Source: Gammaproteobacteria bacterium (lineage in GTDB: Bacteria; Pseudomonadota; Gammaproteobacteria; JBCCGL01). From it: a DNA stretch of 64,000 nt. Positions 6,075 to 62,808 of this stretch are shown piece by piece; position 1 is the first letter of the stretch, and every line of letters begins with the position of its first letter. The notes beneath the pieces are model-generated. The model saw only the letters and a list, made by a program, of their open reading frames with translations, did no database searches and was not told where the DNA came from. A program made the position numbers and the translations under genes. The stretch is taken from positions 3,552,001-3,616,000 of the forward strand of contig OZ255836.1 in assembly GCA_965277715.1 (NCBI GenBank), written 5' to 3'.

Positions 6075-7241
6075 ATGAGCAACGATTTTATTTTTACGTC
6101 TGAGTCTGTGTCTGAAGGTCACCCGGATAAAATGGCCGATCAAATCTCAGATGCCGTGCTGGATGCTATTCTGGAACAGGATAAGCGTGCACGGGTTGCT
6201 TGTGAAACCCTGGTCAAGACCGGTTTGGTGATGATTGCCGGTGAAGTGACCACCTCTGCCTGGGTCGATTTGGAAGCAGTGGTGCGGGAGAAGGTATTGG
6301 ATATTGGTTATAACGGCTCGGACGTCGGTTTTGATGGGGCTACCTGTGCCGTGGTGAATGGCCTTGGTAAACAGTCGCAGGATATAGCAATGGGCGTTGA
6401 CCGTGAACGCGATGAAGAGCAGGGTGCAGGTGACCAGGGTTTGATGTTTGGTTATGCTTCAAACGAAACTGACGTATTGATGCCTGCGCCGATTACCTAC
6501 GCGCATCGACTGGTTGAGCAGCAGTCGAAGGTGCGTAAGCGTGGTGAGTTGAAATGGTTGCGCCCGGATGCAAAAAGCCAGATAACATTGCGCTATAGCA
6601 ACGGTAAACCCGTGGGGATGGAAGCGGTGGTGCTGTCGACACAGCACGATCCCGATATATCACTGGCCAACCTGCAGGAAGCGGTGATGGAACATATCAT
6701 CAAACCAATATTACCCAGCGAATGGATTGCTGGTTGCCCAGGTGAAAATATCCATATTAACCCAACGGGCAATTTTGTTATTGGTGGGCCAGTGGGTGAC
6801 TGCGGTTTAACCGGGCGCAAGATTATCGTCGACACCTATGGGGGGATGGCACGCCACGGTGGCGGTGCGTTTTCTGGGAAAGATCCGTCAAAGGTTGATC
6901 GCTCGGCCGCTTATGCGGGGCGCTATGTGGCGAAAAATATCGTTGCTGCAGGGCTGGCAGACCGGTGCGAGATTCAAATCTCTTACGCAATTGGTGTGGC
7001 CAAACCGACATCGATTAGTATCGAAACGTTTGGTACCGGTAAGATTGATGATCGAAAGATTGAAGCCTTGGTTGCTGGGCATTTTGATTTGCGCCCTTAC
7101 GGTATTCTGAAAATGCTCGATTTGATTCGCCCCATTTATGCGGCAACGGCCCGCTATGGCCATTTTGGTCGCGAAGATGACGCATTTACGTGGGAGCGGA
7201 TCGATAAATCTGACGTCCTGCGCAATGCTGCTGGACTATAA
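6075..7241 (+). CDS. metK: S-adenosylmethionine synthetase
   Basis: [35 protein letters not shown]. Confidence 0.99.
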
Positions 7242-7286: not shown

Positions 7287-7380
7287 CCTGCCGAGGGGCG
7301 TTGCGACAGAGAGGGTTGTATTTTTATTAACCTAGCTCTGCCAGGCTCGGTGTGGTCAAGTTTCTGTAAACGACGCTCGC
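7287..7380 (+). promoter_or_regulatory. SAH riboswitch upstream of ahcY
   Basis: CCGAGGGGCGTTGC...AGGCTCGG (P1), variable hairpin CAGAG..AGGGTT/AACCT..CTCTG, pseudoknot partner AACGACGCTC just before RBS GGAGG; canonical ahcY context. Confidence 0.9.
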
Positions 7381-7398
7381 TGATGACGGAGGTGCACA

Positions 7399-8715
7399 AT
7401 GAGTGCAGCTGTACAACAAATCAGCGACTTCACCGATTACAAAGTCGCCGATATGTCTCTGGCCGAATGGGGCCATAAAGAAGTATCTATTGCCGAAACT
7501 GAAATGCCGGGTCTGATGGCTTTGCGTGAGGAGTACGGGGGTCAGCAACCACTGAAAGGTGCCCGAATTGCCGGTTGTCTGCATATGACTATTCAGACTG
7601 CCGTATTGATTGAGACGTTGATTGATCTTGGTGCGGAGATTCGCTGGTCATCGTGCAATATCTTTTCCACACAGGATCATGCAGCGGCGGCGATAGCCGA
7701 CAACGGTACACCGGTGTTTGCCTGGAAGGGCGAAACCGAAGAGGAGTTTGATTGGTGTATTGAGCAGACCATCCTTGGTCCCAATGGCTGGCGTCCAAAT
7801 TTAATTCTCGATGATGGGGGCGACCTCACGCTGATGATGCACGAGAAGTTTCCTGAATTGCTGGAGGGTGTTAATGGCCTTTCTGAAGAGACTACTACAG
7901 GGGTGCACCGGCTTTACGAGATGATGAAAGCGGGTACGCTGAAAGTGCCTGCTATCAATGTTAACGATTCAGTTACCAAATCAAAATTTGATAATCTTTA
8001 CGGTTGCCGTGAGTCATTACTCGACGGCATCAAACGGGCGACCGATGTAATGGTCGCTGGCAAGATTGCTATTGTGCTCGGCTATGGTGATGTTGGTAAA
8101 GGGTGTGCTCAGGCGTTTCGTGGTATGGGTGCTACTGTCTGGGTTACTGAAATCGACCCAATTTGTGCCCTGCAGGCATCGATGGAAGGTTACCGCGTAG
8201 TGAGAATGGACGATGTTGCCTCACAGGGTGATATTTTTGTGACCACGACGGGTAATATTGACGTGATTACTCATGCGCATATGGTGCAAATGAAAAATGA
8301 ATCGATCGTTTGTAATATTGGTCATTTCGATTCTGAAATTGCTGTTGCCAGCCTCAGGCAATATACGTGGGAAAATATCAAACCGCAGGTGGATCACATT
8401 GTATTTCCCGATGGCAAGCGCATTATTCTACTCGCTGAAGGCCGCCTGGTGAATCTCGGTTGTGCCACAGGTCACCCCAGTTTTGTGATGTCGGCATCGT
8501 TTACCAACCAGGTACTGGCCCAGATAGAGCTTTGGCAGCGCCCGGAACAGTATGCGGTGGATGTTCACGTCTTGCCAAAGTCGCTCGATGAAAAAGTGGC
8601 GCGTTTGCACCTTGGCAAAATTGGTGCAAATCTGACTGTGCTGACACAGGAACAAGCTGATTATATTGATATATCGGCCAATGGACCGTTTAAAGCGGAT
8701 CATTATCGTTACTGA
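7399..8715 (+). CDS. ahcY: Adenosylhomocysteinase
   Basis: [45 protein letters not shown]. Confidence 0.99.
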
Positions 8716-15849: not shown

Positions 15850-17024
15850 GGTTCTTTCCCGGTTGTGGGAGGCATAATATTTTATACCCTTTGCTATTTT
15901 GAGAGAACCCGGTGTTATCAAGCATTGAAGAACATCACAGTCAGCTCCTGGGTCTGATAGATGGCGGGTCAGTAACCTCAGTTGATTTAGACCCATCAGG
16001 GTTAAAAGTATATGCATTTCGTTGGTGTTTAGCGGTGATCAGAGTCCTTGCTCGCACGCATTCCTCGGGTAAGCTGCCCAGCACATGGTGTTAAAAGCAT
16101 GGTATTACCCTGGGCAAGCAAGAGCAGTCGTTTTACATTGTTATTTGAACTATTTTCCATCAGGGTGTTGCGAGTCTCAGGTAGTGTCGAAGAGGCGCGT
16201 AAGTTACTGGGGCTTAGCTGGAACGCGGTGGAAGCCATCAAAGTCCGAGCTGTCGAACGGGTTCTTTCGCGTCGGGAATTGATTACAATAGAGCACCTTG
16301 GTACTGATGAGAAGCCTCACCGTAAAGGGTATGACTATGTGACGCTCATCAATGATATTGACGCAGGGCGAGTATTGGATGGGGTGAGAGATCGCACGCA
16401 GGCAGCCTGTGAGGAGGCGTTAGAGGTTGCGCTGACGGATAGCTAGCGAGAACAGGTGAAAGCTGTCGCGATTGATATGTGGCCTGTGTTCATTAATGCT
16501 GTTGAGGTAAAACTCGCCGACAGTGCGTGCGATTGTTCACGACCGTTTTCACATTAGGTAACACCTCAATAAGGCGGTTGATCAGGTGCGTTGTGTTGAA
16601 CATAGAGCGCTTCTGTCAAAGGGTGATACCCGGTTGAAAAAGAGTCGTTATCACTGGCTAAAAAACGAAGAGAATTTATCTGATAAAGCAGCCAGGCATT
16701 TTGAATCACTGAAGAATGATCAGTTATTGACAGCGCGAGCCTGGGCGATAAAAGAACTGTTTCGTGATGTTTGGATGTATAAGACGGCGGGTTGGACAGT
16801 ATCAAGAAAGTGGCAAAGATGATAAAAGCTTATTTGCCGAACATATTGACCTGGTTTAAGCACACAATAAGCAATGCTGTATAGAGGGACTGAATTCAAA
16901 AATTCAGGCGGTCAAATCGAATGCAAGAGGGTTTCGTTCGTTTGAAAATTACCGGCGGAGTATTTTATTTTACTATGGAAAGCTGGATATGGAACCCGTG
17001 GCTTCACAATAATCGGGAAGAACC
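15850..17024 (+). mobile_element. ISL3-family element copy 1, degenerate transposase
   Basis: Ends GGTTCTTTCCCGGTT / AATCGGGAAGAACC; 8-bp target duplication AGTTTTAT at 15842-15849 and 17025-17032; broken LGTDEK, HDRFH motifs. Confidence 0.92.
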
Positions 17025-17976: not shown

Positions 17977-19056
17977 GGTTCTTCCCCGGTTTGTGTGAGG
18001 TTATAGTATTTCATCCCCCCTTTGCTATTGAGAGACTCCGGTGCTATCGAGCCTTGAAGAACACTACAGCCAGCTCCTGGGTCTGACAGATGACTGGTCA
18101 GTGGTGTCAGTTGATTTAGACCCTTCAGGGTTAAAAGTATCCATTTCGTTGGCGTTTAGCGGCAACCACGGCCCTTGCTCGCACTGTGGAGGGGCTTAGC
18201 TGGAACGCAGTGGAAGCCATCAAAGCCCGCGCTGTCGAACGGGGACTTTCGCGTCGGGAATTGGTGACAATTGAGTACCTGGGTATTGATGAGAAGTCCC
18301 ACCGTAAAGGGCATGACTATGTGACGCTCATCAATGATATCGATGGAGGGCGAGTATTGGATGGAGTGAAAGATCGCACCCAGGCAGCCTGCGAGGAGGC
18401 GTTGGAGGTTGCGCTGACGGATAACCAGCGAGAACAGGTGAAAGCTGTCGCGATTGATAGGTGGCCTGCGTTCATTAATGCCGTTGAGGTAAAACTGTCA
18501 GACAGTGCGATTGTTCACGACCGTTTTCCTATTAGCCAACACCTGAATAAGGCGGTGGATCAGGTCCGTCGTGACGAACATAGAGACCTTTTGTCACAGG
18601 GCGATATCCGGTTGAAAAAGAGTTGTTATCACTGGTTAAAAAACGAAGAAAATTTGTCTAACAAAGCAGCCGAGCGCTTTGAGTCACTCAAGCATGATCA
18701 GTTATTGACAGCCCGAGCTTGGGCGATAAAAGAACTGTTTCGTGATTTTTGGACGTATAAGACAGCGGGTTGGGCAAAGCGTTTCTTTGACGAGTGGTAT
18801 TCATGGGCAATTCGGTGCCGATTGGACAGCATAAAGAAAGTGGCCAAGATGATAAAAACGCACATGCCGAACATATTGACATGGTTTAAGCACACAATAA
18901 GTAATGCCGTGTCAGAGGGTTTGAATTCAAAAATTCAAACAGTCAAATCGAATGCAAGAGGGTTTCGTTCGTTTGAAAGTTACCGGTGGAGTATTTTGTT
19001 TTACTGCGGAAAGCTTGATAGGGAACCGGTGGCTTCACAATAACCGGGGAAGAACC
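17977..19056 (+). mobile_element. ISL3-family element copy 2, internal 5' deletion
   Basis: Perfect 15-bp IR GGTTCTTCCCCGGTT; transposase C-part 18186-19043 (LGIDEK, IVHDRF, SNAVSEGLNSKIQ..K.NARGFRSF); no target duplication. Confidence 0.93.
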
Positions 19057-20615: not shown

Positions 20616-20988
20616 AGGCCTGTTGACGTTTGGCTATAAATTTTTGAAACAAAAGGCAAACTCGTATCATTAGATGTGAGAAAAACAACAAATACGAGTT
20701 TGCCATGCCCCGATTATTGCTCAACGATGAGTATTGGTCGAAGCTACGGAGTATCATGCTTAAAGAAGGCATTTATGACAAGCCGAAGTTAAGGTTAGTC
20801 GTTGAAGGAATTCGTTATCGATTGCGTGTGGGGTGTCCGTGGCGAGATTTACCGGTGTCATTTGGTGACTGGAATAGCGTTTATAAACGCGTCAATGACT
20901 GGTCATCGAAAGACAAGTTAATGAACATTTTCCATGCGCTTGTCGAAGAACCCGATCAAGAATGGGCGTTTATTGATGGAAGTATTGT
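20616..20988 (+). mobile_element. IS5-family (IS427-like, TA target) left half, truncated by ISL3 copy 3
   Basis: TA + IR AGGCCTGTTGACGTTT; ORF from 20705 MPRLLLNDEYW...GCPWRDLP..FGDWNSVYKR...FIDGSIV. Confidence 0.85.
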
Positions 20989-22211
20989 GGTTCCTCCCCG
21001 GTTTGTGTGAGGTTATAGTATTTCCTCCCCCTTTGCTATTGAGAGACTCCGGTGCTATCGAGCCTTGAAGAACACTACAGCCAGCTCCTGGGCCTGACAG
21101 ATGACTGGTCAGTGACATCAGTTGATTTAGACCCTTCAGGGTTAAAAGTATCCATTTCGTTGGCGTTTAGCGGCAACCACGACCCTTGCTCGCACTGTGG
21201 CGAAGTGAGTCCGTTCTATGATCACCGTTCACAAGAGCGATCCTGGAGACACCTGGATACTATGCAGTTTGAAACGTGCCTACACAGTCGCATTCCCCAG
21301 GGTGTTGCAAGCCTCACGTAGCGTCGAAGAGGCGCGTAAGTTACTGAGGCTTAGCTGGAACGCAGTGGAAGCCATCAAAGCCCGCGCTGTCGAGCGGGGA
21401 CTTTCGCGTCGGGAATCGGTGACAATTGAGTACCTGGGTATTGATGAGAAGTCCCACCGTAAAGGGCATGACTATGTGACGCTCATCAATGATATCGATG
21501 GAGGGCGAGTATTGGATGGAGTGAAAGATCGTACCCAGGCAGCTTGTGAGGAGGCGTTGGAGGTTGTGCTGACGGATAACCAGCGAGAACAGGTGAAAGC
21601 TGTCGCGATTGATAGGTGGCCTGCGTTCATTAATGCCGTTGAGGTAAAACTGTCAGACAGTGCGATTGTTCACGACCGTTTTCCTATTAGCCAACACCTG
21701 AATAAGGCGGTGGATCAGGTCCGTCGTGATGAACATAGAGACCTTTTGTCACAGGGCGATACCCGGTTGAAAAAGAGTCGTTATCACTGGTTAAAAAACG
21801 AAGAAAATTTGTCTGACAAAGCAGCCGAGCACTTTGAATCACTCAAGCATGATCAGTTATTGACAGCCCGAGCCTGGGCGATAAAAGAACTGTTTCGTGA
21901 TTTCTGGATGTATAAGACAGCGGGTTGGGCAAAGCGTTTCTTTAGCGCATGGTATGCGTGGGCAATTCGGTGCCGATTGGACAGCATAAAAAAAGTGGCC
22001 AAGATGATAAAAACGCACATGCCGAACATATTGACATGGTTTAAGCATACAATAAGTAATGCCGTATCAGAGGGTTTGAATTCAAAAATTCAGACAGTCA
22101 AATCGAATGCAAGAGGGTTTCGTTCGTTTGAAAGTTACCGGCGGAGTATTTTGTTTTACTGCGGAAAGCTGGATAGGGAACCGGTGGCTTCACAATAATC
22201 GGGGAAAAACC
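20989..22211 (+). mobile_element. ISL3-family element copy 3, ~96-bp deletion with frameshift
   Basis: Ends GGTTCCTCCCCGGTT / AATCGGGGAAAAACC; split ORFs 21052-21321 and 21218-22198; no target duplication. Confidence 0.93.
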
Positions 22212-26398: not shown

Positions 26399-27767
26399 TG
26401 TGCCCTAATATTTTTGTTCTTCCGTGTGCCGTAGAGCAAAGAGTGTAGTAAGGCAAGAAGCTTTGCGACACTCAGAGCGTAAGCTCATAAGAAGATGGTG
26501 GTAGGCCCACCAGAGTCTGTTGTCGGTAACCGGCTTCAAACCACCCCAAGCTGCGTGCGTTAAGAGCGTAGGTGGTGAGCGTTGGGGAAAAGTCAATGCA
26601 AGAACATTGGCAGGTAAGATAGATGAGAGACGAGTAAACCCGAATACGTGTTGACGTGTCGAAACCAAATTGATAAGACATCAGAACCAGGGACGGGAGT
26701 TACAACTGGGATAAGTCTGTGCGTGAATGCTGAATGCGGCGGAGGTGGTGTCTGGCATACAGTGTACGTGACTGTGTATCAGGCTTTTTATGGGAACTGT
26801 GGGAACCAGTCGTTGTGATGCAAAGAGAGAAATACAAATCGCAAAAACGGTAAATATGAGAGTATCGAAGCACAGCACTGGGGCGGAGCTGTTCGTAGTA
26901 GTGATGAAGTGTTTGTAATGAACGTGGAGCGAAGGGGCAGCGTCAGATGGTTCTTTAAAGTGTTTACAACTGTCTTAGGCAGGAGGATATTCACGGAACA
27001 GAACAAAGACGTTAGGGCCTGTTGACGTTTCACATGGGTAACCAAAGAAAGGAGCATGCTAAGGCGAGCATGCTCCGATAATTCCGCTTCAACTTATCAT
27101 ATCGGGTGGCAATCGCTCGAAAATGCTTCAATCGAGCAAACACATTTTCAACCAGGTGTCGGTATTTGTATAAACACCAGTCGATATCCTCATTGCCTAT
27201 TTTTGAGTTGCTTCGCCGTGGAATAACCGGAACTGATTTTTTCTGTCTGATCTGATGGCGTAACGCCTCGCTGTCATACCCTTTGTCAGCCACCACATAC
27301 TCACTTTTTGGCAAGGCATCAATCACTTCAGGAGCCGCTGTGGAGTCATTAACCTGCCCAGCAGTGATGTCAAATAATACGGGCAACCCAAACCCATCTA
27401 CAATCATGTGTATTTTCGTTGTTTTCCCGCCTCGACTGTTGCCAATGGCTTGATTTTCATGCCCTCTAGCCCCTGCACTATGTTGGTGTGCCTTCACAAT
27501 ACTTCCATCAATAAATGCCCATTCTTGATCGGGTTCTTCGACAAGCGCATGGAAAATGTTGATTAACTTGCCTTTCGGTGACCAGTCATTGAAGCGTTTA
27601 TAAACGCTATTCCAGTCACCAAATGATGCCGGTAAATCTCGCTACGGACACCCCACACGCAATCGATAAAGAATTCCTTCGTAAGCGCCAAAGAATAGAC
27701 GTCTAGCAATTACTCGGGTTGGTCCTCACACTGCACCACAGCAACCCAATACCCGCATAGGTGTAGT

Positions 27768-28085
27768 ATGAGCAATAAAGAACGTGCGTCGTACTGGCGC
27801 AATCAAATTGAACAATGGCAAGCATCCGGTTTGAGTGGTGCGCAGTTTTGCCAGGATAACGGCATCAACTTGAAGCAGTTTTACTATTGGCACCGAAAAT
27901 GTTCCCGTAAAACTATTCAAGCAGTGCAGAGTAACATGCCTGTAGCAGGCTTTACCCAAGTGATGGTGGCTGATAGGCAAAGGGCTGATCCGGGTTTGTG
28001 TTTTACGCTGGCCAATGGCTGTGCCATTTCTGGCATTACCGCCGCTAACGTGACGTTAGTTGGCGCGTTACTGGCGCAGTTATGA
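27768..28085 (+). CDS. tnpA: IS66 accessory protein TnpA
   Basis: W..QIEQWQASGLS.AQFC....I..KQFYYW HTH pattern. Confidence 0.85.
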   Translation: MSNKERASYWRNQIEQWQASGLSGAQFCQDNGINLKQFYYWHRKCSRKTIQAVQSNMPVAGFTQVMVADRQRADPGLCFTLANGCAISGITAANVTLVGALLAQL

Positions 28086-28450
28086 TGGCCCGTTATTTAC
28101 GGCCATCGCTCGATATTCCAAAGGTGTTTTTATACCGAGAGGCGGTGGACTTTCGTAAGCAAAGCAATGGCCTTGCGGCCATTGTTGAGCGAGAGCTGGG
28201 TCACAACCTGTTTGATGGTGGCTTATACGTGTTTACCAATCGCCGCCGCAACAAAATCAAGTGTCTGATGTGGGAGGACAACGGTTTTGTACTGTATTAC
28301 AAAGCCTTGGCCGAAGAGCAATTTAAGTGGCCTGACCTCGATGAGGAAGTCATATCACTGACCGGCACACAAATAAATTGGTTGCTTGATGGCTATGATT
28401 TAGCCGCAATGAAAGGCCACAAAGTATTGCATTACGAATCTGTTTTTTAG
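28082..28450 (+). CDS. tnpB: IS66 accessory protein TnpB
   Basis: VDFRKQSNGL, VFTNRRRNKIKCL.WEDNGF.LYYK.L. Confidence 0.9.
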   Translation: MMARYLRPSLDIPKVFLYREAVDFRKQSNGLAAIVERELGHNLFDGGLYVFTNRRRNKIKCLMWEDNGFVLYYKALAEEQFKWPDLDEEVISLTGTQINWLLDGYDLAAMKGHKVLHYESVF

Positions 28451-28501
28451 CCTGCTAAAGGGTGAAAAAGTGTTTAATTTTAATGATCTTTAGACAGCTA
28501 T

Positions 28502-30136
28502 TTGGTATTATTACGCGATGGTTTTGGCATCGGAAATTCAACAAAAACAACGCAATTACACCGGCTTAACGGCGGCTTAACGGCGGCTGAATTAGTGGCC
28601 GTGCTGGCAGAAAAAGAAGCCGAATTAGCGCACCATAACCAAATTATTCAACGTCACAAAAACACCATTAAAAACCGCGATCACTACATTCGTTTGCTGG
28701 AAGAACGGTTGCGTCTTTCCAAGGTTCAGAGGTTCGGCGCTAACAGCGAAAAGCTTGCCTTCCAGATTGACTTGTTTGATGAAGCGGAACTCGAACAAGC
28801 CATTGTCGACATTGATAACCAACTACCGGATGAGTTGCTACCTCAGCCTACGACCACGAACAAGAAAAAACGTCAACGCGGCTTCTCCAACCGTTTACCC
28901 CGTGTGCGCGTTGAGCTAGCCTTAAGCGATGAGGAAAAAGCAGGCGCTACACGTACTTTCTTTGTGAAAGTCAAAGAAGAACTCCAATACATTCCCGCAC
29001 AACTCAACGTTTTAGAGTACTGGCAAGAAAAGGCCGTCTTCAGCTACGCAGGTGATGACCACATCATCGCCGCGCAACGCCCCATACACCCTTTGGGTAA
29101 GTGCTTTGCCAGCACGGCTCTGCTCGCCAACATCATGGTGTCCAAATACGCCGATGGGTTGCCCTTGTATCGCCAGGAAAGCATTTTAAAGCGTTATGGA
29201 CATGCCGTGAGCCGCACCAACATGGCCAACTGGATGATTCGCCTGGAAGATGTCTTAAAACCCCTGATGACCTTGCTGCGGGAAAGTCAAAATGCCGGTG
29301 ATTATGTGCAAATGGACGAAACGCGTATCCAGGTACTCAAAGAAAATGGCAAAACCGCCCAATCCGATAAATGGATGTGGCTAACGCGCGGTGGCCCTCC
29401 AGCCCAGCCCAGTGTGTTGTTTGAATACGACCCCTCTCGTTCGGGCGAAGTGCCGCAACGCTTACTGGAAGGTTTTCAAGGCACTCTGCAAGTCGATGGC
29501 TATTCAGGGTATAACGGGGTGTGCGAACAACAAAATCTGACACGTATTGGTTGCTGGGATCATGTGCGCCGAAAATTCATTGATACCATTAAAGCCGCCG
29601 ATAAAGCAAACACGAAAAAACCCCGTGCCTCGAAAGCCGATGTCGCCATCGGTAAAATCCGCAAGCTCTATCTCATTGAGAAAAAGATACACGCGCTTGA
29701 ACCCGCAGAAAAACAAAGGTTTCGCCAAACACTTAGCCAACCGATATTAGAAGACTTCAAACAATGGCTGGATAAGCATATTACCCAGGTGGCTAAAAAG
29801 TCCCTTACGCGTAACGCCATGGACTATGCACTGAATCAATGGCATACCCTCACAGGCTACTGTGATGATGGACGGTTACACATCAGCAACGTGCTGGCTG
29901 AAAATGCCATTAGGCCTTTTGCCGTGGGTAGAAAAGCCTGGTTGTTTGCCGATTCAACCCGTGGCGCCCATGCCAGTGCCACATGTTACTCATTGATCGA
30001 AACGGCCAAAGCTAATGGGCTTGAACCCTATGCGTACATACTGCACGCCCTTAATCATATCGGCAGTACGGATACTCTTGAAAAGATAGAGGTCTTGCTG
30101 CCTTGGCATGTCGTTTTGGACATTACCTTGGAATAG
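28502..30136 (+). CDS. tnpC: IS66 DDE transposase TnpC (natural ATG 28518 thrown out of frame by an 11-bp duplication)
   Basis: RFGANSEK, SKYADGLPLYRQ, MDET, QVDGYSGY, CWDHVRRKF, SNVLAENAIR, SLIETAKANGL. Confidence 0.88.
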   Translation: MVLLRDGFGIGNSTKTTQLHRLNGGLTAAELVAVLAEKEAELAHHNQIIQRHKNTIKNRDHYIRLLEERLRLSKVQRFGANSEKLAFQIDLFDEAELEQAIVDIDNQLPDELLPQPTTTNKKKRQRGFSNRLPRVRVELALSDEEKAGATRTFFVKVKEELQYIPAQLNVLEYWQEKAVFSYAGDDHIIAAQRPIHPLGKCFASTALLANIMVSKYADGLPLYRQESILKRYGHAVSRTNMANWMIRLEDVLKPLMTLLRESQNAGDYVQMDETRIQVLKENGKTAQSDKWMWLTRGGPPAQPSVLFEYDPSRSGEVPQRLLEGFQGTLQVDGYSGYNGVCEQQNLTRIGCWDHVRRKFIDTIKAADKANTKKPRASKADVAIGKIRKLYLIEKKIHALEPAEKQRFRQTLSQPILEDFKQWLDKHITQVAKKSLTRNAMDYALNQWHTLTGYCDDGRLHISNVLAENAIRPFAVGRKAWLFADSTRGAHASATCYSLIETAKANGLEPYAYILHALNHIGSTDTLEKIEVLLPWHVVLDITLE

Positions 30137-31662
30137 AGGCTGATTTAAGGGCGCTTACATTCCTTCAACGACTAACCTTAACTTCGGCTTGTCATAAATG
30201 CCTTCTTTAAGCAAGCTACTCCGTAGCTTCGACCAATACTCATCGTTGAGCAATAATCGGGGCATGGCAAACTCGTATTTGTTGTTTTTCTCACATCCAA
30301 TGATACGAGTTTGCCTTTTGTTTCAAAAGCTTAAAAGCTTATAGCCAAACGTCAACAGGTCCTAGGCTATTTGTAGCAAAAGTGGACTGTAGACTGGTTC
30401 AGGAAGATACGTTTGTGGTTACATGATTTGTTTACCCATAGACGGGCAGGAACAGGCGAGGGTTTGTCTGATGGGAGCGGTATGAATCGAGAGGTTCACG
30501 TACCGTTCTGCGAGGGGTTGCGGGGGAGGTTCCCGCTGCCTACTCACCTGGTTTGTGTGAGGCTATAGTATTTCATGCTCCTTTGCTATTTTGAGAGAAC
30601 CCGATGTTATCGAGCCTTAAAGAACACTACAGTCAGCTCCTTGATCTGACAGATGAGTGGTCAGTGACATTAGTTGATTTAGAGACCCTTCAGGGTTTAA
30701 AAGTATCTATTTCGTTGGCGTTTAGCGATGACCAGGGTCCTTGTTCGCACTGTGGCGAAGTGAGCCCATTCTATGGCCACTGTTCACAAGAGTGATCCTG
30801 GAGGCACTTAGATACCATGCAATTTGAAACATGTTTGCACAGCCGCATTCCTAGGGTAAACTGTCCGGAACATGGTGTTAAAAGTATAGCGTTACCGTGG
30901 GCAAGCAATAGCAGTCGTTTTACGTTGTTGTTTGAATTATTTTTCATCAGGGTGTTGCCAGCCTCACGTAGCGTCGAAGAGGCGCGTAAGTTACTGGGGC
31001 TTAACTGAAACGCGGTGGAAGGAATCAAAGCCCGAGCTGTCGGGCGGGGTCTTTCGCGCCGGGAGTTGGTCACAATAAAGAATTGTTATCACTGGTTAAA
31101 AAACGAAAAAAATTTACCTGACAAAGCAGCTGTACACTTTGGAATTACTGAAGCATGATCAGTTATTGACAGCACGGACCTGGACGATAAAAGAACTGTT
31201 TCGTGATTTTTTGGGGGGATAAGGTGGCGGGTTAGGCAAAGCATTTCTTTGACAAGTGGTCTTTGTGGATAAGTCGGCGCCGACTGGACAGTATAAAGAA
31301 AATGGCAAAGATAATAAAAGCTCATTTGACGAAATATTGACATGGTTGAAGCGCACAATAAGTAATGCCGTATCAAAGAGCTTAAATTCAAAAAATCAGA
31401 CGCTTAAATCAAGCGCAAGAGGATTTTATGCGTTTGAAAGTTACCGGCAGAGTATTTTGTTTTACTGCGGAAAGCTGGATATGGAGTCAGTAACTTCACA
31501 ATAATCGGGAAAGCACCATTTAATTCAATGTGTATGCTGTAATTAAGATAATTTGATATGGAGTGAAAAAGAAGTGGTGTGCAATAGTTTTAATGCGAAG
31601 TTTTCAAATTTTCTAGGCATATCCAATATGTCAGTTAGCAACAATAGGTAATAATTTTCTCG

Positions 31663-45771: not shown

Positions 45772-46752
45772 TTAAGAGATAGATTGGTAGTAAACATTCT
45801 GTGGATGATCCGCTTCAATGAAAAAATACCATCGCTCGACCAGTAGCCCTACATACTGGACGATATAAACTATCATAAAAAGCCAGAAAAATGATTGCTT
45901 AAGAGAAAGTACCAATAATATTACTGGAAAAACAAATACAGTAATTAAAAAAAACCGGCGTGCCAGTTTAATAATAGTGGTTGAATAAGTGTGAATAAAT
46001 GTACGGGTATTGAAACTTCCCCCCATTGCACCCTGGGCCATTTGGCGAATGGTGGGGTGATGGATGCCGGTTGCCGATTGTAGGGTAGTTGTGTGGCGTA
46101 GATTCTTATTGCGGATGAGTGTCGCCCACCGGGAAATGCCAGCCAGCAGTGTAAAGAGGATAGCAGATCCTGTATAAAACCCAGTGTATTGACTAGAGAG
46201 AAATGCAGCGACAACGCAGGCCAATGTACAGCCAGAGGCGCTGCCCAGCAAAAAGAAATTACACACCGTTAATGGGCTATGCCACTGGCGCAGGAATTTC
46301 AGACAGGCGTAGATCATTGAGGTGCACACGAATAATCCAATGATTGCGATAGCGGTAAATCCACCAATGAGTGTGTGCAGCGGAACATCAACACCATTGC
46401 TGAGTGTTATTGCAACGGCTTTTGGGTCGGCATAGATTACTGCTGTGTAAATGAGTATTGATCCCATCACAATGGGGAGGGCGATCACCTCGCGTGATAG
46501 CCAGGAGGTGCGCCACATGGCGGCGGCCCGCCAGGCGCGCTCAGGATGCCCGAGGTGGAAGAATGAGGCCATTAATCCAGCCGCTAATAATGAAAAGCTG
46601 AGCACACCGCCCGTCGTAAACTCGGCGGTGTTATCTGTCGTGGGTAGCAGGGTGAGCAGTGCGAGTACATGGGCGCTGAATTGTGCCAGAAAAAGGCCCT
46701 GGCCAGCACCAATCAAGGTGGTGAGAAGGATAACGGAGAGTGCAGGTTTCAT
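45772..46752 (-). CDS. soeC: Sulfite dehydrogenase membrane anchor (DmsC-like)
   Basis: MKPALSVI..TTLIGAGQGL, FFHLGHPERAWRA..MWRTSWLSRE, ERWYFF. Confidence 0.85.
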   Translation of the reverse strand: MKPALSVILLTTLIGAGQGLFLAQFSAHVLALLTLLPTTDNTAEFTTGGVLSFSLLAAGLMASFFHLGHPERAWRAAAMWRTSWLSREVIALPIVMGSILIYTAVIYADPKAVAITLSNGVDVPLHTLIGGFTAIAIIGLFVCTSMIYACLKFLRQWHSPLTVCNFFLLGSASGCTLACVVAAFLSSQYTGFYTGSAILFTLLAGISRWATLIRNKNLRHTTTLQSATGIHHPTIRQMAQGAMGGSFNTRTFIHTYSTTIIKLARRFFLITVFVFPVILLVLSLKQSFFWLFMIVYIVQYVGLLVERWYFFIEADHPQNVYYQSIS

Positions 46753-46756
46753 AGCC

Positions 46757-47488
46757 TTACCAACTGGTGGAATCGTCGAGTGTGGTCTTTTTACTCGGGT
46801 TGCGTTTGAGCTTATCTTCTTTTTTTAGTGGGTTGTTGGATCGCACCAACTCGTCTTCGTGGATATGCATATGGGTTTTACGGCGCGGTAGGTAGTGGTT
46901 GGCTGGAGTTGTGCCCCACTCTGGCATAAGTGGGTAACCACCGGCCTCACTGATCGCCTGTGATGCCTCGGAGTTAGGGTCGTGGATATCGCCATAAATA
47001 CGCGCACTGGTAGGGCAGGACAACACACACACTGGCTTGCGCTCGCTTTCTGGCAGTGTTTCGTCATATAGCCGATCGACACATAACGTACATTTCATCA
47101 TGACTTTTTGTTTTTCGTCGAGTTCGCGTGCACCGTAAGGGCAGGCCCAGGAACAGTACTCGCAACCGATGCATTTGTCATAATCGACCAGTACGATGCC
47201 GTCTTCCGGGCGTTTGTAGCTGGCGCCGGTTGGGCATACGGGTACACACGGTGGGTCTTCGCAGTGCAAGCAGGATTTAGGAAAGTGAACTGTCTGGGTA
47301 TCGGGAAATGTGCCCACTTCAAAGGTTTGCACGCGGTTGAAAAATGTGCCGCTCGGTTCGGCTGTGTAGGCATTTTTGTCAAACATTGGCCCCGCTTCAC
47401 CCGAGGTGTTCCACTCTTTACAGCTGGTGACACAGGCGTGGCAGCCAACACAGGTATTTAAATCGATAACAAGTGCGAGTTGAGTCAT
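46757..47488 (-). CDS. soeB: Sulfite dehydrogenase 4Fe-4S subunit
   Basis: CVGCHACVTSCKEWN, CLHCEDPPCVPVCPTG, CIGCEYCSWACPYG. Confidence 0.88.
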   Translation of the reverse strand: MTQLALVIDLNTCVGCHACVTSCKEWNTSGEAGPMFDKNAYTAEPSGTFFNRVQTFEVGTFPDTQTVHFPKSCLHCEDPPCVPVCPTGASYKRPEDGIVLVDYDKCIGCEYCSWACPYGARELDEKQKVMMKCTLCVDRLYDETLPESERKPVCVLSCPTSARIYGDIHDPNSEASQAISEAGGYPLMPEWGTTPANHYLPRRKTHMHIHEDELVRSNNPLKKEDKLKRNPSKKTTLDDSTSW

Positions 47489-50367
47489 GAGTTAATCAGC
47501 CCTTTCGCGAATGCCTGCCATTTTGGATACCGGGGTTGCATACCGGGCACCGTTGGCATGTGGTTGAATTGAGGGAATGTCTGTTTTGGTTCATCGGCTG
47601 CCGCTTTATAAACGCGCACGCGCACATCGTACCAGGCCGCCTGTCCGGTGATAGGGTCAGAGTTGGAGATGGTGCTTTCACTTGAGCCAGAAGGGAGTTC
47701 TTCACTGATTAAGTGATTGAGCAGAAAGCCTTTGTTTGATTCATTGGCGCTTTTGTCCAGTGCCCAGCTACCCGAGGCTTTGCCAATGGCGTTCCAGGTC
47801 CAGACTGTGCCCGGTTCTACGGCCTCTGAGAAACGGCACATGCAGCGTACTTTGCCGTGTGCCGATTCGACCCATATCCAATCACCGTCGGCAAAACCCT
47901 GGGCTGCGCCAACTCTGGGGTTGACGAACAAATAGTTGTGCGCGTGGATTTGCCGCAGCCAGGCATTTTGTGAATCCCAGGAGTGGTACATTGCCATCGG
48001 TCGCTGGGTGATCGCGTTGAGTGGGTATTTTTCTGTATCGATACACTGTGTCTCCAGTGGTTGTGAATAAAACGGCAGTGGATCGAAGTGCGTACTGACG
48101 CGTTCACGAAGGTGGTCTGGCGGTTGTCGGCCAGCCCGTTTACCCTGAGCGGCGAGGCGAAATTTTTGCAATACTTCAGAATAGATATGCAGGTTGACCG
48201 GGTCGGTATAGCGGATCAAACCATGGTCCTGTGCCCAGTGCAGGTAGCCACGGTTCCAGTTGCGCATGTATTGAAATGATTTCGGCAGGGTGTACTGGTA
48301 TACGCAGTTGTTTTTTGCGTACATTTCCCATTGTTGTGGGTTGGGTTCGCCGCGCATAAATTTTTCACCGCCTTTGCCACGCCACCCCGCCAGAAAACCG
48401 ATGCCAGAACCTGGCTCGGTCTCATAGTTAATCACTAAATCTTTGTAGTCTTTGAATTTTCGCGAGCCGTCCCCGTTCAGAAAACGGGGCAGCTTCAGGC
48501 GAGTGGCCAGCTCTACAACAACATCCTGAAAGGGTCGGCAATCGCCTTTCGGTGGCACCACCGGCACTCGCACCGAATCGGCGGGGCCTTCAAACTCAGA
48601 GATTGGACGATCCAGCATCGACATGGCGTCATAACGCTCCAGGTAACTGGTATCGGGCAATACAATATCGGCAAAGGCGATTGTTTCCGAGTGGTAGGCA
48701 TCGCATACGATTAGAAACGGGATCTTGTACTCGCCGTCGTCGTTTTTATCCACCAGCATTTCGCGCACACGCGTCGTGTTCATCGATGAGTTCCATGCCA
48801 TGTTGGCCATAAACAGCATCAGTGTATCGATTGGGTAGGGATCACCCCGCCAGGCATTGGTGATGACATTGTGCATTAAGCCGTGTACGGCCAGTGGATA
48901 CTCCCACGAGAAGGCCTTGTCGAGACGCACAGGGCCGCCTCGATCATCGACAAACAAATGCTCTGGATTTGCGGGAAACCCCAGTGGCATACCATCGAGC
49001 GGTGCGCCGGGCTGTACTGCGTCGGGTGAGTTTGGTGGCTTGGCGCAGGGCGGGATAGGCCGTGGAAAAGGGGCTTTGTGGCGAAAGCCGCCAGGGCGGT
49101 CGATGGTGCCCAACAGTGACATCAGGATACCCAGTGCACGGATTGTCTGGAAGCCATTCGAGTGTGCCGCCAGACCGCGCATGGCGTGAAATGAAACCGG
49201 GTTACCCGTAACGGTATCGTGATCCACTCCCCAGGCATCGGTCCACTGGATCGGCAATTCGATTTTTTCGTCGCGTGCTGTAATGCCCATTTCATGGGCG
49301 AGGCGTCTGATAGTACTGGCGGCAATGCCGGTAATACCTTCGGCCCATTCAGGAGTGTATTGTTCGACGCGCTCCTTGAGTAGTTGCAGTGACGTTTTTA
49401 CCGGCTTGCCGTCAACTTCGTATTCGCCCAGCAGACGGGGGTCGGCACCTTTGCTGTGCGTGTGCACCGGTGAATCTGAATTTCTGTCCCAGCAAATTTT
49501 GTTTTCCGGTTCGACGCAGGTTTTTTCCGTGGGTAAATGGTGGCGTAAAAACAGGCCATAATCGTCACTGTCCGGGTCGAGGTTGACTAAATCCGGTGCG
49601 TTGCTGTAATTGATTAAAAACTCCCGGTCGAACAATCCCTGCGCGATGATTTCCCGGATAATCGCCAGTAGTAACGCACCGTCAGTACCGGGTTTTATGG
49701 GTACCCATTCATCGGCGATGGCGGCGTAGCCGGTGCGTACCGGGTTGATTGCGATAAAGCGCCCACCGTTGCGTTTGAACTTTGCCAAAGCAATTTTCAT
49801 CGGATTGGAGTGGTGGTCTTCAGCCGTGCCCAGCATGATAAATAAACGGGATCGTTCCAGATCGGGGCCACCAAATTCCCAAAAAGAACCACCGATGGTG
49901 TAAATCATGCCCGCCGCCATATTCACCGAGCAGAAGCCACCGTGTGCTGCGTAATTGGGTGTGCCAAACTGTTTGGCAAACAAGCCGGTCAATGCCTGCA
50001 TCTGATCGCGGCCCGTGAAAAAGGCAAATTTCTTTGGATCGGTTTCCCGGATAGTATGCAGACGGTCGGCAATTGTGCTGAGCGCCTCTTCCCAGGATAT
50101 TTCCTCAAATTCAGATTGGCCTCGATCACAACCTGGCTTTCGGCGTAATGGTTTGGTCAGCCGGGCGGGTGAGTACTGTTTCATGATGCCAGATGCCCCT
50201 TTGGCGCATAACACACCTTTATTAATTGGGTGGGCCGGGTTACCCTGAATAAACCGTATTTCACCGTCTTCCACCGTGACATTGATGCCACAGCGACAGG
50301 CACACATATAGCACGTGGTCGATTTGACTTCGCGCTTTATAGCGGGTGTAGGGTTTGGCTTGTTCAT
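47485..50367 (-). CDS. soeA: Cytoplasmic molybdopterin sulfite dehydrogenase catalytic subunit
   Basis: TTCYMCACRCG, AAHGGFCSVNMAAG, HAMRGLAAHSNGFQT; no Tat signal; ABC operon order. Confidence 0.87.
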   Translation of the reverse strand: MNKPNPTPAIKREVKSTTCYMCACRCGINVTVEDGEIRFIQGNPAHPINKGVLCAKGASGIMKQYSPARLTKPLRRKPGCDRGQSEFEEISWEEALSTIADRLHTIRETDPKKFAFFTGRDQMQALTGLFAKQFGTPNYAAHGGFCSVNMAAGMIYTIGGSFWEFGGPDLERSRLFIMLGTAEDHHSNPMKIALAKFKRNGGRFIAINPVRTGYAAIADEWVPIKPGTDGALLLAIIREIIAQGLFDREFLINYSNAPDLVNLDPDSDDYGLFLRHHLPTEKTCVEPENKICWDRNSDSPVHTHSKGADPRLLGEYEVDGKPVKTSLQLLKERVEQYTPEWAEGITGIAASTIRRLAHEMGITARDEKIELPIQWTDAWGVDHDTVTGNPVSFHAMRGLAAHSNGFQTIRALGILMSLLGTIDRPGGFRHKAPFPRPIPPCAKPPNSPDAVQPGAPLDGMPLGFPANPEHLFVDDRGGPVRLDKAFSWEYPLAVHGLMHNVITNAWRGDPYPIDTLMLFMANMAWNSSMNTTRVREMLVDKNDDGEYKIPFLIVCDAYHSETIAFADIVLPDTSYLERYDAMSMLDRPISEFEGPADSVRVPVVPPKGDCRPFQDVVVELATRLKLPRFLNGDGSRKFKDYKDLVINYETEPGSGIGFLAGWRGKGGEKFMRGEPNPQQWEMYAKNNCVYQYTLPKSFQYMRNWNRGYLHWAQDHGLIRYTDPVNLHIYSEVLQKFRLAAQGKRAGRQPPDHLRERVSTHFDPLPFYSQPLETQCIDTEKYPLNAITQRPMAMYHSWDSQNAWLRQIHAHNYLFVNPRVGAAQGFADGDWIWVESAHGKVRCMCRFSEAVEPGTVWTWNAIGKASGSWALDKSANESNKGFLLNHLISEELPSGSSESTISNSDPITGQAAWYDVRVRVYKAAADEPKQTFPQFNHMPTVPGMQPRYPKWQAFAKGLINS

Positions 50368-60101: not shown

Positions 60102-61385
60102 TTACTCCCGGGCAATTGCCCGGTAGCCAATATCACGCCGGTAATACGCGCCTTCCCATTCGATTTTTTCGACGTTTTGGTGTGCCGTTTGCTGCGCTTC
60201 CTGAACTGAGTTGCCAAGGGCTGCCACACACAATACACGCCCGCCCGCAGTGATTATGTCACCCATGGGATTTATCGCTGTACCGGCATGAAAAACCTTT
60301 ACATCGTGGTTATCGATACCTGACAACCCTGAGATATGGTGGCCTTTTGCATATTCTTCCGGGTAGCCGTCGGCGGCCATGACGACACCCAGCGCGCTGC
60401 GGTTATCCCAATCGGCATCGACCTGATCCAGCTTTTGGTTACATGCGGCAAGGCACATTGCCACCAAATCACCTTTTAACCGCAACATTATCGCTTGCGT
60501 TTCCGGGTCACCAAAGCGCACATTAAATTCGAGCACGCGAGCCGTTCCCTCTTTACTTATCATTACCCCTGCATATAAAAAGCCGGTAAATGGTGTACCG
60601 TCTGCCGCCATACCATCGACTGTTGGGTGAATAATTTTCTGCATAATCTGCTGATGCAGGGAAGCATCGATAATAGGTGCGGGCGAATAGGCGCCCATGC
60701 CGCCCGTATTGGGTCCCTTGTCGCCTTCATCGCGTGCCTTGTGATCCTGAGAGGTCGCCATTGGCAGAATATTTTTGCCATCGACCATACAAATAAAGCT
60801 CGCTTCCTCACCGTCGAGAAAAGCCTCAATTACCACTCTGTGGCCCGCCTCTCCAAAGGCATTACCTGCCAACATATTATTGATGGCTGCCGCTGCCTGT
60901 GTGTGTGTATTGGCGATAACCACACCTTTCCCGGCGGCCAGGCCATCGGCTTTGACAACGATGGGTGTATCCATGTGTTGAGCGTATTCAATGGCAGCTT
61001 GCGCCTGGGTAAACGACTGGTAGGTTGCCGTGGGGATAGTGTGGCGAATTAAAAATTCCTTGCTGAAGGTTTTACTGCCTTCAAGCTGGGCCGCCGCCGC
61101 TGTGGGGCCAAAAATTGTCAGGCCTGCTGCCTGAAACGTATCGACGATGCCCGCAACCAGTGGCACTTCAGGGCCAACTATTGTCAACGCGATGGTTTTT
61201 TCCAGTGCAAAGTGCAGCAGTGATTCAATGTCTTCAGCTTGAATGGGCACATTATGAATGTGGGGTTCTTCAGCAGTGCCGGCATTGCCGGGGGCGACGT
61301 ATACGCATTCAACACCAGCGCCTTGAACCGCTTTCCAGGCTAACGCGTGCTCCCGTCCACCGCCACCAACAATCAGCACTCTCAT
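60102..61385 (-). CDS. purD: Phosphoribosylamine-glycine ligase
   Basis: [48 protein letters not shown]. Confidence 0.97.
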
Positions 61386-61437
61386 AACACTCTCCAAAAA
61401 AAGTTGTAATTTTACGTGTAGAGTGGATTGTATTGCA

Positions 61438-61597
61438 TATAAAAGAGGCGGACCTGACTGTCTGCCAATGATGGAGGATTTGTTCAAAGTGTTTGTGACA
61501 TCCTTGTCACAAGCCTCCTTAGTGGCTAAATCTCCTTGTGTCTTTCGTAGACATGTTTATACCTTTACACCGATCCTTGTGTAGTACGTCCCAGTGG
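61438..61597 (-). ncRNA. Candidate CsrA/RsmA-sequestering sRNA 1 (RsmX/Y/Z-like)
   Basis: Five GGA motifs, three in hairpin loops, incl. UUGUGACA-AGGA-UGUCACAA; upstream TGCTATATATT -10; 3' hairpin GGCAGAC/GTCCGCC followed by TCTTTT. Confidence 0.62.
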
Positions 61598-61944
61598 TTT
61601 GAAATATATAGCAGTGTTATGACTAACTCTGTGAGAGTTTACGTATTTATTTGGGTATTATTACCATTTTGAATTTCACACTGCAGTGTGGTTGTGTTCC
61701 GATAAAATACAGTTGGGCGAAAAAATACCTTAAGTATCTGATATAGTTGGTAAAAAACTGAAATTAATGACAGCTAAAAAGAAGCAAAAAAGCACCAAAA
61801 ATGTAGGAAAAACTGTTTCGGTCGATTGAGTTGGTGATTAAATTTTTTTAAATCTATCGCCTTGTTTGTTTTTGTCAGGCAACAGCATTTTCCTGAACGA
61901 CTGGGTAGTGTGTAGCGTTAGTTGGTCGATTGGGGTGTAATGCG

Positions 61945-62052
61945 GGTTGAGCAAGTGCGACATCCTTGTCGCGGCCTCCTCTAGTGGCTCTAATCCATCT
62001 TGGAGCTCTTCCCTGCGGGCTGCAGTTCCGGGGTGCGGCCCGTATCCATTAG
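61945..62052 (-). ncRNA. Candidate CsrA/RsmA-sequestering sRNA 2 (ends uncertain)
   Basis: Six GGA motifs in ~95 nt, four in predicted loops, incl. GCGACA-AGGA-UGUCGC; shares its 3' module with sRNA 1. Confidence 0.58.
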
Positions 62053-62142
62053 CTGTTAGATTAGGTGTATATCTTTTAACGCTCAGTGAACTAATACACA
62101 AATTACCTGTGAAAAAATACCAAAATGGATAATTATTATAAT

Positions 62143-62808
62143 TTAGTAGCTTATGAGGGAATCGGGCAATGTCTTTTCAATGCAAATTGTTTTTTTACCG
62201 ACAGAAATATATTTTTTGTGGCCGAGTTCCCGTAGAATTTTGCTTACTGCTTCTCTGGATGAACCCACTCGATCAGCAATTACCTGATGGGTTAGGCGTT
62301 TGGTATACCACTTGTTCTTCTCTTCATAGGCATCTTTCATCAATACACGCCGTACCCTGCCGTAAACGTTGAGCAGTGCAAAGCTGCTGACTTCATCACT
62401 AAGTGACACTACGCGTTCAATCAATAACTTGATGATATGCTGGGATATTTGCGGGTAGCGCGACATGCAATTGAGAAAATCGTTTTTTGAAATAACCGAG
62501 AAGCAACTGTTTTCCAGCGTAATGACACTGGCTGAACGACGCTGATTACTCAACAGTGCAAGCTCACCAAATGAGTCACCGGGGTATAGCGTGTTTAAGG
62601 TCACTTCGCGACCCTCCTCATCGCTTATGTAGACGCGCACTGAACCACGGGTAATAACGTATAAGGAGTCCGTCTCATCACCCTGGGTGACTACAACTGA
62701 GTGTTTTTTGTAGCTACGGATGGTAGCTACGGCTTCCAGCATATTTAGATCTTCTGATCCAAGATCACTCAACAACGCAATATTTTTCAAACCATAAGAA
62801 GGCGACAT
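62143..62808 (-). CDS. Crp/Fnr-family transcriptional regulator (cNMP-binding)
   Basis: FGELALL...RSASV cNMP pocket; HTH LTHQVIADRVGSSREAVSKIL; no FNR cysteine cluster. Confidence 0.88.
   Translation of the reverse strand: MSPSYGLKNIALLSDLGSEDLNMLEAVATIRSYKKHSVVVTQGDETDSLYVITRGSVRVYISDEEGREVTLNTLYPGDSFGELALLSNQRRSASVITLENSCFSVISKNDFLNCMSRYPQISQHIIKLLIERVVSLSDEVSSFALLNVYGRVRRVLMKDAYEEKNKWYTKRLTHQVIADRVGSSREAVSKILRELGHKKYISVGKKTICIEKTLPDSLISY

Follow-up and report, generated by a model that had tools for sequence, protein, structure and literature searches.

A candidate pair of Csr/Rsm-type RNAs in the crp-like/purD gap of a gammaproteobacterial genome

Two GGA clusters and their shared module

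We analyzed a stretch of 64,000 nucleotides (nt), here called the window, from a Gammaproteobacteria bacterium (GenBank assembly GCA_965277715.1, contig OZ255836.1, positions 3,552,001 to 3,616,000). A gap of 757 nt in this window separates a gene of the CRP/FNR family (62808..62143) from purD (61385..60102), both on the minus strand. On the gap's minus strand, GGA motifs form two clusters, which we call copy A, at approximately 62051..61940, and copy B, at approximately 61596..61437; the A+T-rich spacer between the copies is without AGGA from 61894 to 61577 on that strand. The two clusters have in common a module of two GGA-bearing hairpins and are candidates for small RNAs (sRNAs) of the Csr/Rsm type. 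Their main parts are the following:

61854..62051, minus strand: copy A, putative sRNA with a GGA-rich core, a C-rich tail and a 3' hairpin; both ends predicted
61956..61989, minus strand: module A, hairpins H3 and H4; local fold of -11.7 kcal/mol, z -1.7
61988..61974, minus strand: H3 of module A, GCC[ACUAGAGGA]GGC
61972..61957, minus strand: H4 of module A, GCGACA[AGGA]UGUCGC, which includes ACAAGGAUGU
61437..61596, minus strand: copy B, putative sRNA with 5 GGA; both ends predicted
61494..61527, minus strand: module B, hairpins H3 and H4; local fold of -13.1 kcal/mol, z -3.1
61527..61512, minus strand: H3 of module B, AGCC[ACUAAGGA]GGCU
61510..61495, minus strand: H4 of module B, GUGACA[AGGA]UGUCAC

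Copies A and B share a single module of 34-35 nt, AGCCACUA(G)AGGAGGC-N3/4-GYGACAAGGAUGUCRC, which reads AGCCACUAGAGGAGGC-CGC-GACAAGGAUGUCGC in module A (61989..61956) and AGCCACUA-AGGAGGC-UUGU-GACAAGGAUGUCAC in module B (61527..61494). Hairpin H3 consists of a GCC/GGC stem of 3-4 base pairs (bp) and the loop ACUA(G)AGGA; H4 has a 6-bp stem, GYGACA/UGUCRC, and the loop AGGA, and the GGA of H3 precedes that of H4 by 14-15 nt. H4 holds the exact core ACAAGGAUGU selected by SELEX (systematic ligand evolution by exponential enrichment), and opening of its closing A-U pair results in an AAGGAU hexaloop. According to PMC7652899, the SELEX consensus of CsrA is RUACARGGAUGU, CsrA sites carry GGA in the loop of a short hairpin in which AC and GU are paired, RsmE prefers ANGGAN loops, and one CsrA dimer bridges two sites 10-63 nt apart. 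An earlier analysis made from the letters of the window alone, here called the sequence-only reading, had named ACARGGAUGU as the high-affinity CsrA consensus, in agreement with this source.

The same reading had described the module with its GGA hairpins, and gapped local alignment of module A with module B bore it out: the alignment scored 41, which 0 of 1000 shuffles reached (mean 10.6, maximum 20). Module B is also stable as a local fold, with equally stable structures in 3 of 200 shuffles. Outside the module, by contrast, shuffles scored at least as high as the real A/B alignment in 74% of cases for the upstream regions, 99% for the 5' bodies and 78% for the 3' tails. Because the module is the sole part conserved between the two copies, its conservation points to selection on the module; and since similarity upstream, in the 5' body and in the 3' tail is at shuffle level, copies A and B appear to be old paralogues, or otherwise constrained ones, that have kept just the module. 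The distance of about 350 nt given by the sequence-only reading is right for the gap between the clusters but not for the modules, whose start-to-start spacing is 462 nt.

The module does not appear to be a dispersed repeat. At up to 1 mismatch, GACAAGGATGTC occurs only at the two module sites in 64 kb (0.17 expected), and a scan of 185,579 species genomes with the module pattern gave one match, a chance one, antisense to a gene for a fatty-acid hydroxylase in a metagenome-assembled genome of the Pseudomonadales. The two copies of the window itself were not among the results of that scan, so the window's genome must be absent from the scanned collection or masked in it. Against the concern that the module might prove to be a high-copy repeat stand the count of 2 in the window and that single chance match.

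The motif bias is confined to one strand. Both window occurrences of the SELEX core ACARGGATGT (2/2) lie in the two copies, and the stretch that holds them, which makes up 1% of the window, contains 4 of the 6 minus-strand occurrences of ACAAGGA and 8 of the 115 of A[N]GGA. The plus strand of the same stretch has no ACAAGGA and 1 A[N]GGA.

The H4 sequence is also palindromic as DNA, which leads to the possibility that there is no RNA function at all and that the module is a relic of local duplication or a palindromic operator, GYGACA-N4-TGTCRC, for a dimeric DNA-binding protein, the GGA richness being incidental. The copy B version of H4 is indeed a CRP-like site with 2 mismatches (61494-61511), GGA counts are moderately above those of dinucleotide-preserving shuffles, and the whole-RNA folds show no significant stability. 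At a recognised operator base, nevertheless, one would not expect a symmetric double change by which pairing is preserved, and the first half of the module (GCC-loop-GGC, AGGAGG) is conserved though not palindromic. The strict strand specificity of the motif bias also speaks for RNA, and the surroundings of the module have diverged beyond recognition, which argues against a recent neutral duplication. We regard the absence of an RNA function as quite unlikely.

GGA sites and comparison with CsrA-binding RNAs

Recounting the motifs gave 6 GGA for copy A (62052..61940) and 5 for copy B (61594..61440), the numbers that the sequence-only reading had reported for its two clusters. In copy A, the six lie in the core (62051..61957) at minus-strand positions 62047, 62029, 62012, 61996, 61979 and 61965, and the sequence AUGGAU appears twice, at 62049..62044 and 61998..61993. 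The core is followed by a C-rich, G-poor tail (61955..61880; 27 C and 11 G) that precedes the 3' hairpin. The GGA of copy B are at 61591, 61576, 61535, 61518 and 61503 on the minus strand; three are in the repeated CACAAGGA/GACAAGGA and one in UAAGGAGG. Copy B has in addition an internal 16-nt repeat, ACGnnnnACACAAGGA, at 61589..61574 and 61548..61533, which ends in CACAAGGA.

We scanned the window for AGGA/ARGGA density in the manner of CSRNA_FIND, a method that uses five sequence criteria for CsrA-regulating sRNAs (Kulkarni et al. 2006, PMC1488887). Copy A ranks first in the 64 kb at window sizes of 60-180 nt, with 5 motifs in 90-150 nt against a 99.9th percentile of 4-5, the background being this one 64-kb window. 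Another GGA-dense stretch of the minus strand, 20931-21113, was set aside: it has no hairpin module and adjoins an ISL3 transposase gene (21218..22198).

The Escherichia coli K-12 RNAs CsrB, CsrC and Spot 42 were run as controls through the same script as copies A and B, and gave these values:

CsrB (E. coli): GGA density 6.0 per 100 nt; GGA unpaired with a mean probability of 0.80
CsrC (E. coli): GGA density 5.7 per 100 nt; GGA unpaired with a mean probability of 0.61
Spot 42 (E. coli): GGA density 0.9 per 100 nt; its single GGA unpaired with a probability of 0.81
Copy A core: GGA density 5.3 per 100 nt; GGA unpaired with a mean probability of 0.66
Copy B: GGA density 3.2 per 100 nt; GGA unpaired with a mean probability of 0.57

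The GGA density and predicted accessibility of the two copies are therefore in a range comparable with CsrB and CsrC, and the ACAAGGAUGU hairpin equals the SELEX optimum of E. coli CsrA as given in PMC7652899. In contrast, CsrB and CsrC carry 22 and 14 GGA in 369 and 246 nt, compared with 5-6 in the copies, which moreover have no UvrY box. A blastn search in distant mode with 61430-62140 against 5,426 E. coli genomes, and likewise against plasmids, returned no match at E<=1.

The RsmX, RsmY and RsmZ RNAs of Pseudomonas (Rfam families rsmX, RsmY and PrrB_RsmZ) are sRNAs that measure about 100-200 nt, carry a few A(N)GGA in short hairpin loops, occur as several paralogues per genome and sequester RsmA/CsrA dimers. 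Our copies resemble them in their predicted size, in their A(N)GGA motifs, part of which local folds place in hairpin loops, and in being paralogues. They differ in being tandem in one intergenic gap, in having no covariance-model match (E<=10) and no GacA box, and in the lack of a canonical terminator in copy A. By analogy, the elements would work like decoys of RsmX/Y/Z size, yet they fit no existing family. CsrA/RsmA binders outside the classic CsrB/RsmZ families or GacA control exist in P. aeruginosa, namely RsmV and RsmW. CbsR12 of Coxiella and Pf1 of Pseudoalteromonas are likewise reported as unconventional CsrA binders; they are precedents for lineage-specific Csr-type sRNAs and imply no sequence relation. 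With regard to the CSRNA_FIND criteria set out in PMC1488887, the copies have an intergenic, non-coding location and agree in part in density (copy A ranking top), in a terminator-like 3' end (copy B) and in GGA placed in loops or free regions. They lack a conserved upstream site of the csrB/csrC/rsmY type.

The AGGAGG of the module lies 11-12 nt upstream of an AUG inside ACAAGGAUGU in both copies, so that the module could be the translation-initiation region of small open reading frames (ORFs) of 41 codons (A) and 5 codons (B), which would encode peptides repressed by CsrA, or else a leader peptide. Read in this frame, the compensatory pair has a synonymous change on its 3' side (UCG/UCA). 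The frames, however, are wholly different after two codons, and the AUG inside module B opens a frame of 5 codons only, followed by a stop. The Shine-Dalgarno-AUG spacing is long, and the AGGAGG and AUG features are typical of CsrA sites anyway. For an 87-amino acid (aa) frame over copy A, Pfam gave no match, and a set of 5.8 billion proteins yielded no relative at E<=10 in a search that covered proteins of 47-153 aa and would miss a family of ~41 aa; none of the gap ORFs matched a Pfam family at the default level. We consider the small-ORF explanation very improbable, and these results support the view that the elements are non-coding.

Taken together, the shared module, the SELEX core and the strand-specific motif bias make it somewhat better than an even chance, at a probability of about 0.55, that the gap encodes a paralogous pair of small, lineage-specific minus-strand RNAs of the Csr/Rsm type that sequester CsrA. 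Two RNAs of roughly 100-200 nt each would be transcribed from the minus strand and act as decoys for CsrA/RsmA, with 5-6 GGA each, mostly in A(N)GGA context. Within the module, H4 would present ACAAGGAUGU with its GGA in the loop and H3 would present AGGAGG 14-15 nt upstream. Since this H3-H4 spacing is within the bridging range of 10-63 nt stated in PMC7652899, one module could clamp one CsrA dimer as a high-affinity site. The remaining, secondary GGA sites would recruit further CsrA, and as the RNAs accumulate, CsrA would be drawn away from its target mRNAs. We infer that the two RNAs are transcribed, where they end, that they bind CsrA and that they titrate it.

If this is true, the Csr/Rsm decoy principle reaches into a poorly sampled gammaproteobacterial lineage, by way of Csr-type RNAs that homology models miss and that are without the GacA/UvrY box by which genes of this sort are found and defined. 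A new RNA family could then be seeded from the pair, and CsrA control independent of GacA could be tested on it, the gain being incremental in that the regulator class is well known.

Several results weigh against the decoy-pair reading. Rfam 15, searched at E<=10 over 61300-62250 (951 nt), gave no Csr/Rsm match: the covariance models for CsrB, CsrC, RsmY, PrrB_RsmZ and rsmX were all silent, and the 4 matches obtained were snoRNA/PYLIS noise. At gathering thresholds over the whole window there were 3 unrelated matches (group II intron pieces and an S-adenosylhomocysteine (SAH) riboswitch). Despite the two AUGGAU of copy A, there was also no match at E<=10 to the TwoAYGGAY RNA motif, an Rfam family that has two hairpins whose loops are AYGGAY. 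The Rfam search is in keeping with the earlier suggestion of a family "not covered by existing models". No homologue was found, hence there is no comparative covariation. Within the 64-kb window, csrA was not found by regular-expression search or by family scans of the larger ORFs, nor were uvrY and barA found by family scans. Literature searches, which were not targeted to this organism, yielded no description of such RNAs beside purD; we make no claim that they are unpublished.

On the side of the motifs and folds, the density of copy B (4 motifs) ties for second place with several coding stretches, and dinucleotide-preserving shuffles of the copies already yield ~3.5 GGA. The predicted accessibility of GGA exceeds that of shuffles just marginally: a mean unpaired probability of 0.66 for copy A (shuffles 0.45) is reached by 5.7% of the shuffles, and 0.57 for copy B (shuffles 0.37) by 8.4%. 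The whole-RNA folds are not more stable than those of shuffles (z -0.86 and -1.14). The earlier statement that GGA are mostly in hairpin loops is borne out in part: local folds place 3/6 of them there in copy A and 3/5 in copy B, and the whole-RNA minimum free energy (MFE) structures 2/6 and 1/5. As for covariation, all 6 pairs of the H4 stem form in both copies, 5 being invariant and 1 being C-G in copy A versus U-A in copy B. The compensatory change that the sequence-only reading had pointed out is thus real, but as evidence of selection it carries little weight, as a lone pair in n=2 sequences is equalled by 263 of 500 shuffles. Of the proposal of a paralogous Csr-type sRNA pair as such, the paralogous module, the SELEX core and the non-coding character held, while the argument from covariation comes down to this one pair.

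The upstream and downstream signals add to these counterpoints. Our promoter and terminator scanner found no convincing sigma-70 promoter at the 5' end of either copy, a canonical intrinsic terminator was not found for copy A, and the GacA/UvrY box TGTAAG-N6-CTTACA, the consensus of the upstream site of that type, was not found at <=3 mismatches in the gap (61385-62143). The sequence-only reading had likewise seen no GacA box. Matches to the box at this threshold number 14 in the window against 26.3 expected, the nearest one being inside the crp-like ORF.

Transcript ends, control and flanking genes

Apart from the module, local folding gave four hairpins near the predicted ends of the copies:

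62016..62042, minus strand: copy A 5' hairpin CGGGC.GCA[CCCCGGAAC]UGC.GCCCG, with GGA in the loop
61854..61885, minus strand: copy A 3' hairpin CUGUUGCCU[14 nt]AGGCGAUAG, followed by AUUUAAAAAAAUUU
61566..61583, minus strand: copy B 5' hairpin UACAC[AAGGAUCG]GUGUA, with GGA in the loop
61437..61466, minus strand: copy B terminator-like element GGC.GAC[AGUCAG]GUC.GCC, followed by UCUUUUAUAU

The 5' hairpins show no gain over shuffles, at -12.3 kcal/mol (z -0.17) for copy A and -4.2 kcal/mol for copy B. The 3' hairpin of copy A folds at -11.7 kcal/mol with z -5.2, and none of 200 shuffles was equally stable; it has no U-tract, and the scanner made no terminator call for it (61885..61854). This predicted structure is a possible, atypical 3' end. 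Rho-dependent termination and read-through from the crp-like gene are further possibilities for the 3' end of copy A. The element of copy B is an interrupted 6-bp stem followed by UCUUUUAU, folds at -8.0 kcal/mol (z -1.7; stability equalled by 10 of 200 shuffles) and drew no terminator call under the scanner's criteria. It stops ~50 nt upstream of the purD start codon.

An anti-Shine-Dalgarno-like AAAUCCUCC lies 3' of the module in copy B (61461-61480, minus strand), and its partner in the MFE fold is AAGGAGAUUU, which contains GGA and is located 5' of the module. The MFE fold of copy A has an analogous enclosing helix, GGG..GAGC with GCUC..CCC, of unrelated sequence. Such a helix may be an architecture common to both copies, the basis being two insignificant folds.

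The scanner's sole promoter call on the minus strand, 61878..61851, falls within the 3' hairpin of copy A, and a looser scan gave weak candidates only. Read by eye, weak -10 candidates are TAATCT at 62063..62058 for copy A and TATATT at 61608..61603 for copy B. Candidate promoter blocks shared by the two upstream regions, obtained by MAFFT and reading (an exact 11-mer, GGTATTTTTTC, and TCACnGAG), were discarded, as the upstream regions are no better than shuffles.

Both flanking genes are on the same strand as the copies, and no terminator was found between the crp-like stop (62143) and copy A. These facts, along with the want of a strong independent promoter for either copy and the position of the terminator-like hairpin ~50 nt short of the purD start codon, fit an explanation in which the GGA clusters are cis-acting, CsrA-responsive parts of mRNAs, copy A in the 3' untranslated region (UTR) of the crp-like gene and copy B in a purD 5' leader or attenuator with the hairpin and U-run as a regulated terminator. 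On the other hand, the last GGA of copy B (61503) is ~107 nt away from the GGA of the purD Shine-Dalgarno sequence, beyond the bridging range of 10-63 nt given in PMC7652899. A weak purD promoter candidate, TATGCA-N19-TAAAAT, with a start at ~61402, is situated downstream of the copy B hairpin. Why one and the same module should be duplicated between a 3' UTR and a 5' leader follows no obvious cis logic, and the Rfam search of 61300-62250 at E<=10 gave no riboswitch or leader family. We judge the cis-acting explanation to be unlikely, and continue with decoy RNAs as the preferred reading.

The context of these putative decoys comprises the following features:

62143..62808, minus strand: CRP/FNR-family gene, upstream context; 221 aa from ATG 62808 (most likely start), stop at 62143
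62085..62100, no strand assigned: CRP-consensus-like site TGTGTATTAGTTCACT with 2 mismatches, upstream of copy A; weak lead
61677..61690, no strand assigned: perfect 14-bp palindrome CACACTGCAGTGTG in the spacer, ~88 nt upstream of where copy B is predicted to begin
60102..61385, minus strand: purD, downstream context, 427 aa; TIGR00877 at 1.2e-169, aligned 1-424 of 425

The sequence-only reading had placed the elements next to the gene of a cyclic nucleotide-binding regulator, and the neighbouring product matches Pfam PF00027 (cNMP_binding) at 2.1e-26 as well as PF13545 (HTH_Crp_2) at 1.9e-09. Against the CRP equivalog of NCBIfam it scores 114.5 bits, below the cut-off of 266. Its recognition helix, SREAVSK, aligns with SRETVNK of solved CRP/FNR-family proteins, and a CRP-like half-site preference is plausible for this regulator. 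The best non-self relatives are 75% (CRP-like) and 76% (PurD) identical. Because these closest relatives share one 3063-nt contig, from the same source, crp-like/purD synteny is suggested to be kept in at least one relative. Further relatives of the two proteins show 63-72% identity, and PurD relatives with a name (Thioflexithrix, Thiogranum, Thiomicrospira) reach about 65-66%. Judged from these protein searches, sampling of the lineage is poor.

We used as criterion for a class II CRP promoter a TGTGA-N6-TCACA-like site centred near -41.5. The CRP-like site at 62100..62085 stands 21 nt upstream of the weak -10 candidate of copy A, and its counterpart in copy B in the same register has 3 mismatches, the registers having been picked after the fact. 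CRP-like sites at 2 mismatches number 47 in the window against 29.7 expected; the 757-nt gap has 4 of them, two of which are the H4 hairpin of copy B. Control of the copies by the neighbouring CRP-like regulator is a weak lead.

In a more extended form of the decoy reading, the pair would be outside the GacS/GacA circuit, with one or both RNAs driven by the upstream CRP-family sensor of cyclic nucleotides and copy A maybe being the 3' end of the regulator's mRNA. A cyclic nucleotide signal would then set the level of free CsrA in a deep-branching, sulfur-oxidiser-like gammaproteobacterium, with the module as a single-dimer clamp. We offer this scheme as speculation, and it is quite unlikely to be correct.

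The scanner flagged the palindrome at 61677-61690 as resembling a plus-strand terminator. It may serve copy B as an operator or have no role. As an upstream site shared by both copies it was rejected, given that it occurs once in the window at <=3 mismatches and has no counterpart at copy A.

Other features of the window

Among the Rfam matches, the domains D1-D4 of a group II intron (101 bits, 26497-26615, plus strand) and its domains V/VI (59 bits, 30473-30548, plus strand) are nearly 4 kb apart. Between them (27030-30136) there is no reverse-transcriptase ORF; present are IS66 TnpB (28082-28450), an IS66 transposase (28502-30136) and a DDE_Tnp_1 fragment on the opposite strand (27030-27497). 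It seems that insertion sequences have invaded the intron or that its own protein has been lost. Three pieces or copies of ISL3-family transposases (16048-16446, 18186-19043 and 21218-22198, plus strand) lie in a polysaccharide-synthesis cluster of low G+C content, and the 16-mer TGTGACGCTCATCAAT is found in these ISL3 regions at 16338, 18320 and 21475. The SAH riboswitch (7287-7385, plus strand, 50.8 bits) is located between metK (6075-7241) and the gene for S-adenosylhomocysteine hydrolase (7399-8715), an ordinary arrangement.

A molybdopterin oxidoreductase set of three genes on the minus strand (45772-50367) encodes a catalytic protein of 960 aa, an Fe-S protein of 243 aa and a DmsC-like membrane anchor of 326 aa. 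We take these sizes to recall the sulfite-oxidising SoeABC or polysulfide/thiosulfate reductases, and the set hints at a sulfur-metabolising host. Finally, the GC skew over 1-60000 is strong, uniform and positive (~+0.06 to +0.22 per 2-kb bin, the region near 28-30 kb excepted), and the plus strand carries most of the genes; over 60-64 kb it drops to approximately zero, and the genes there are on the minus strand.

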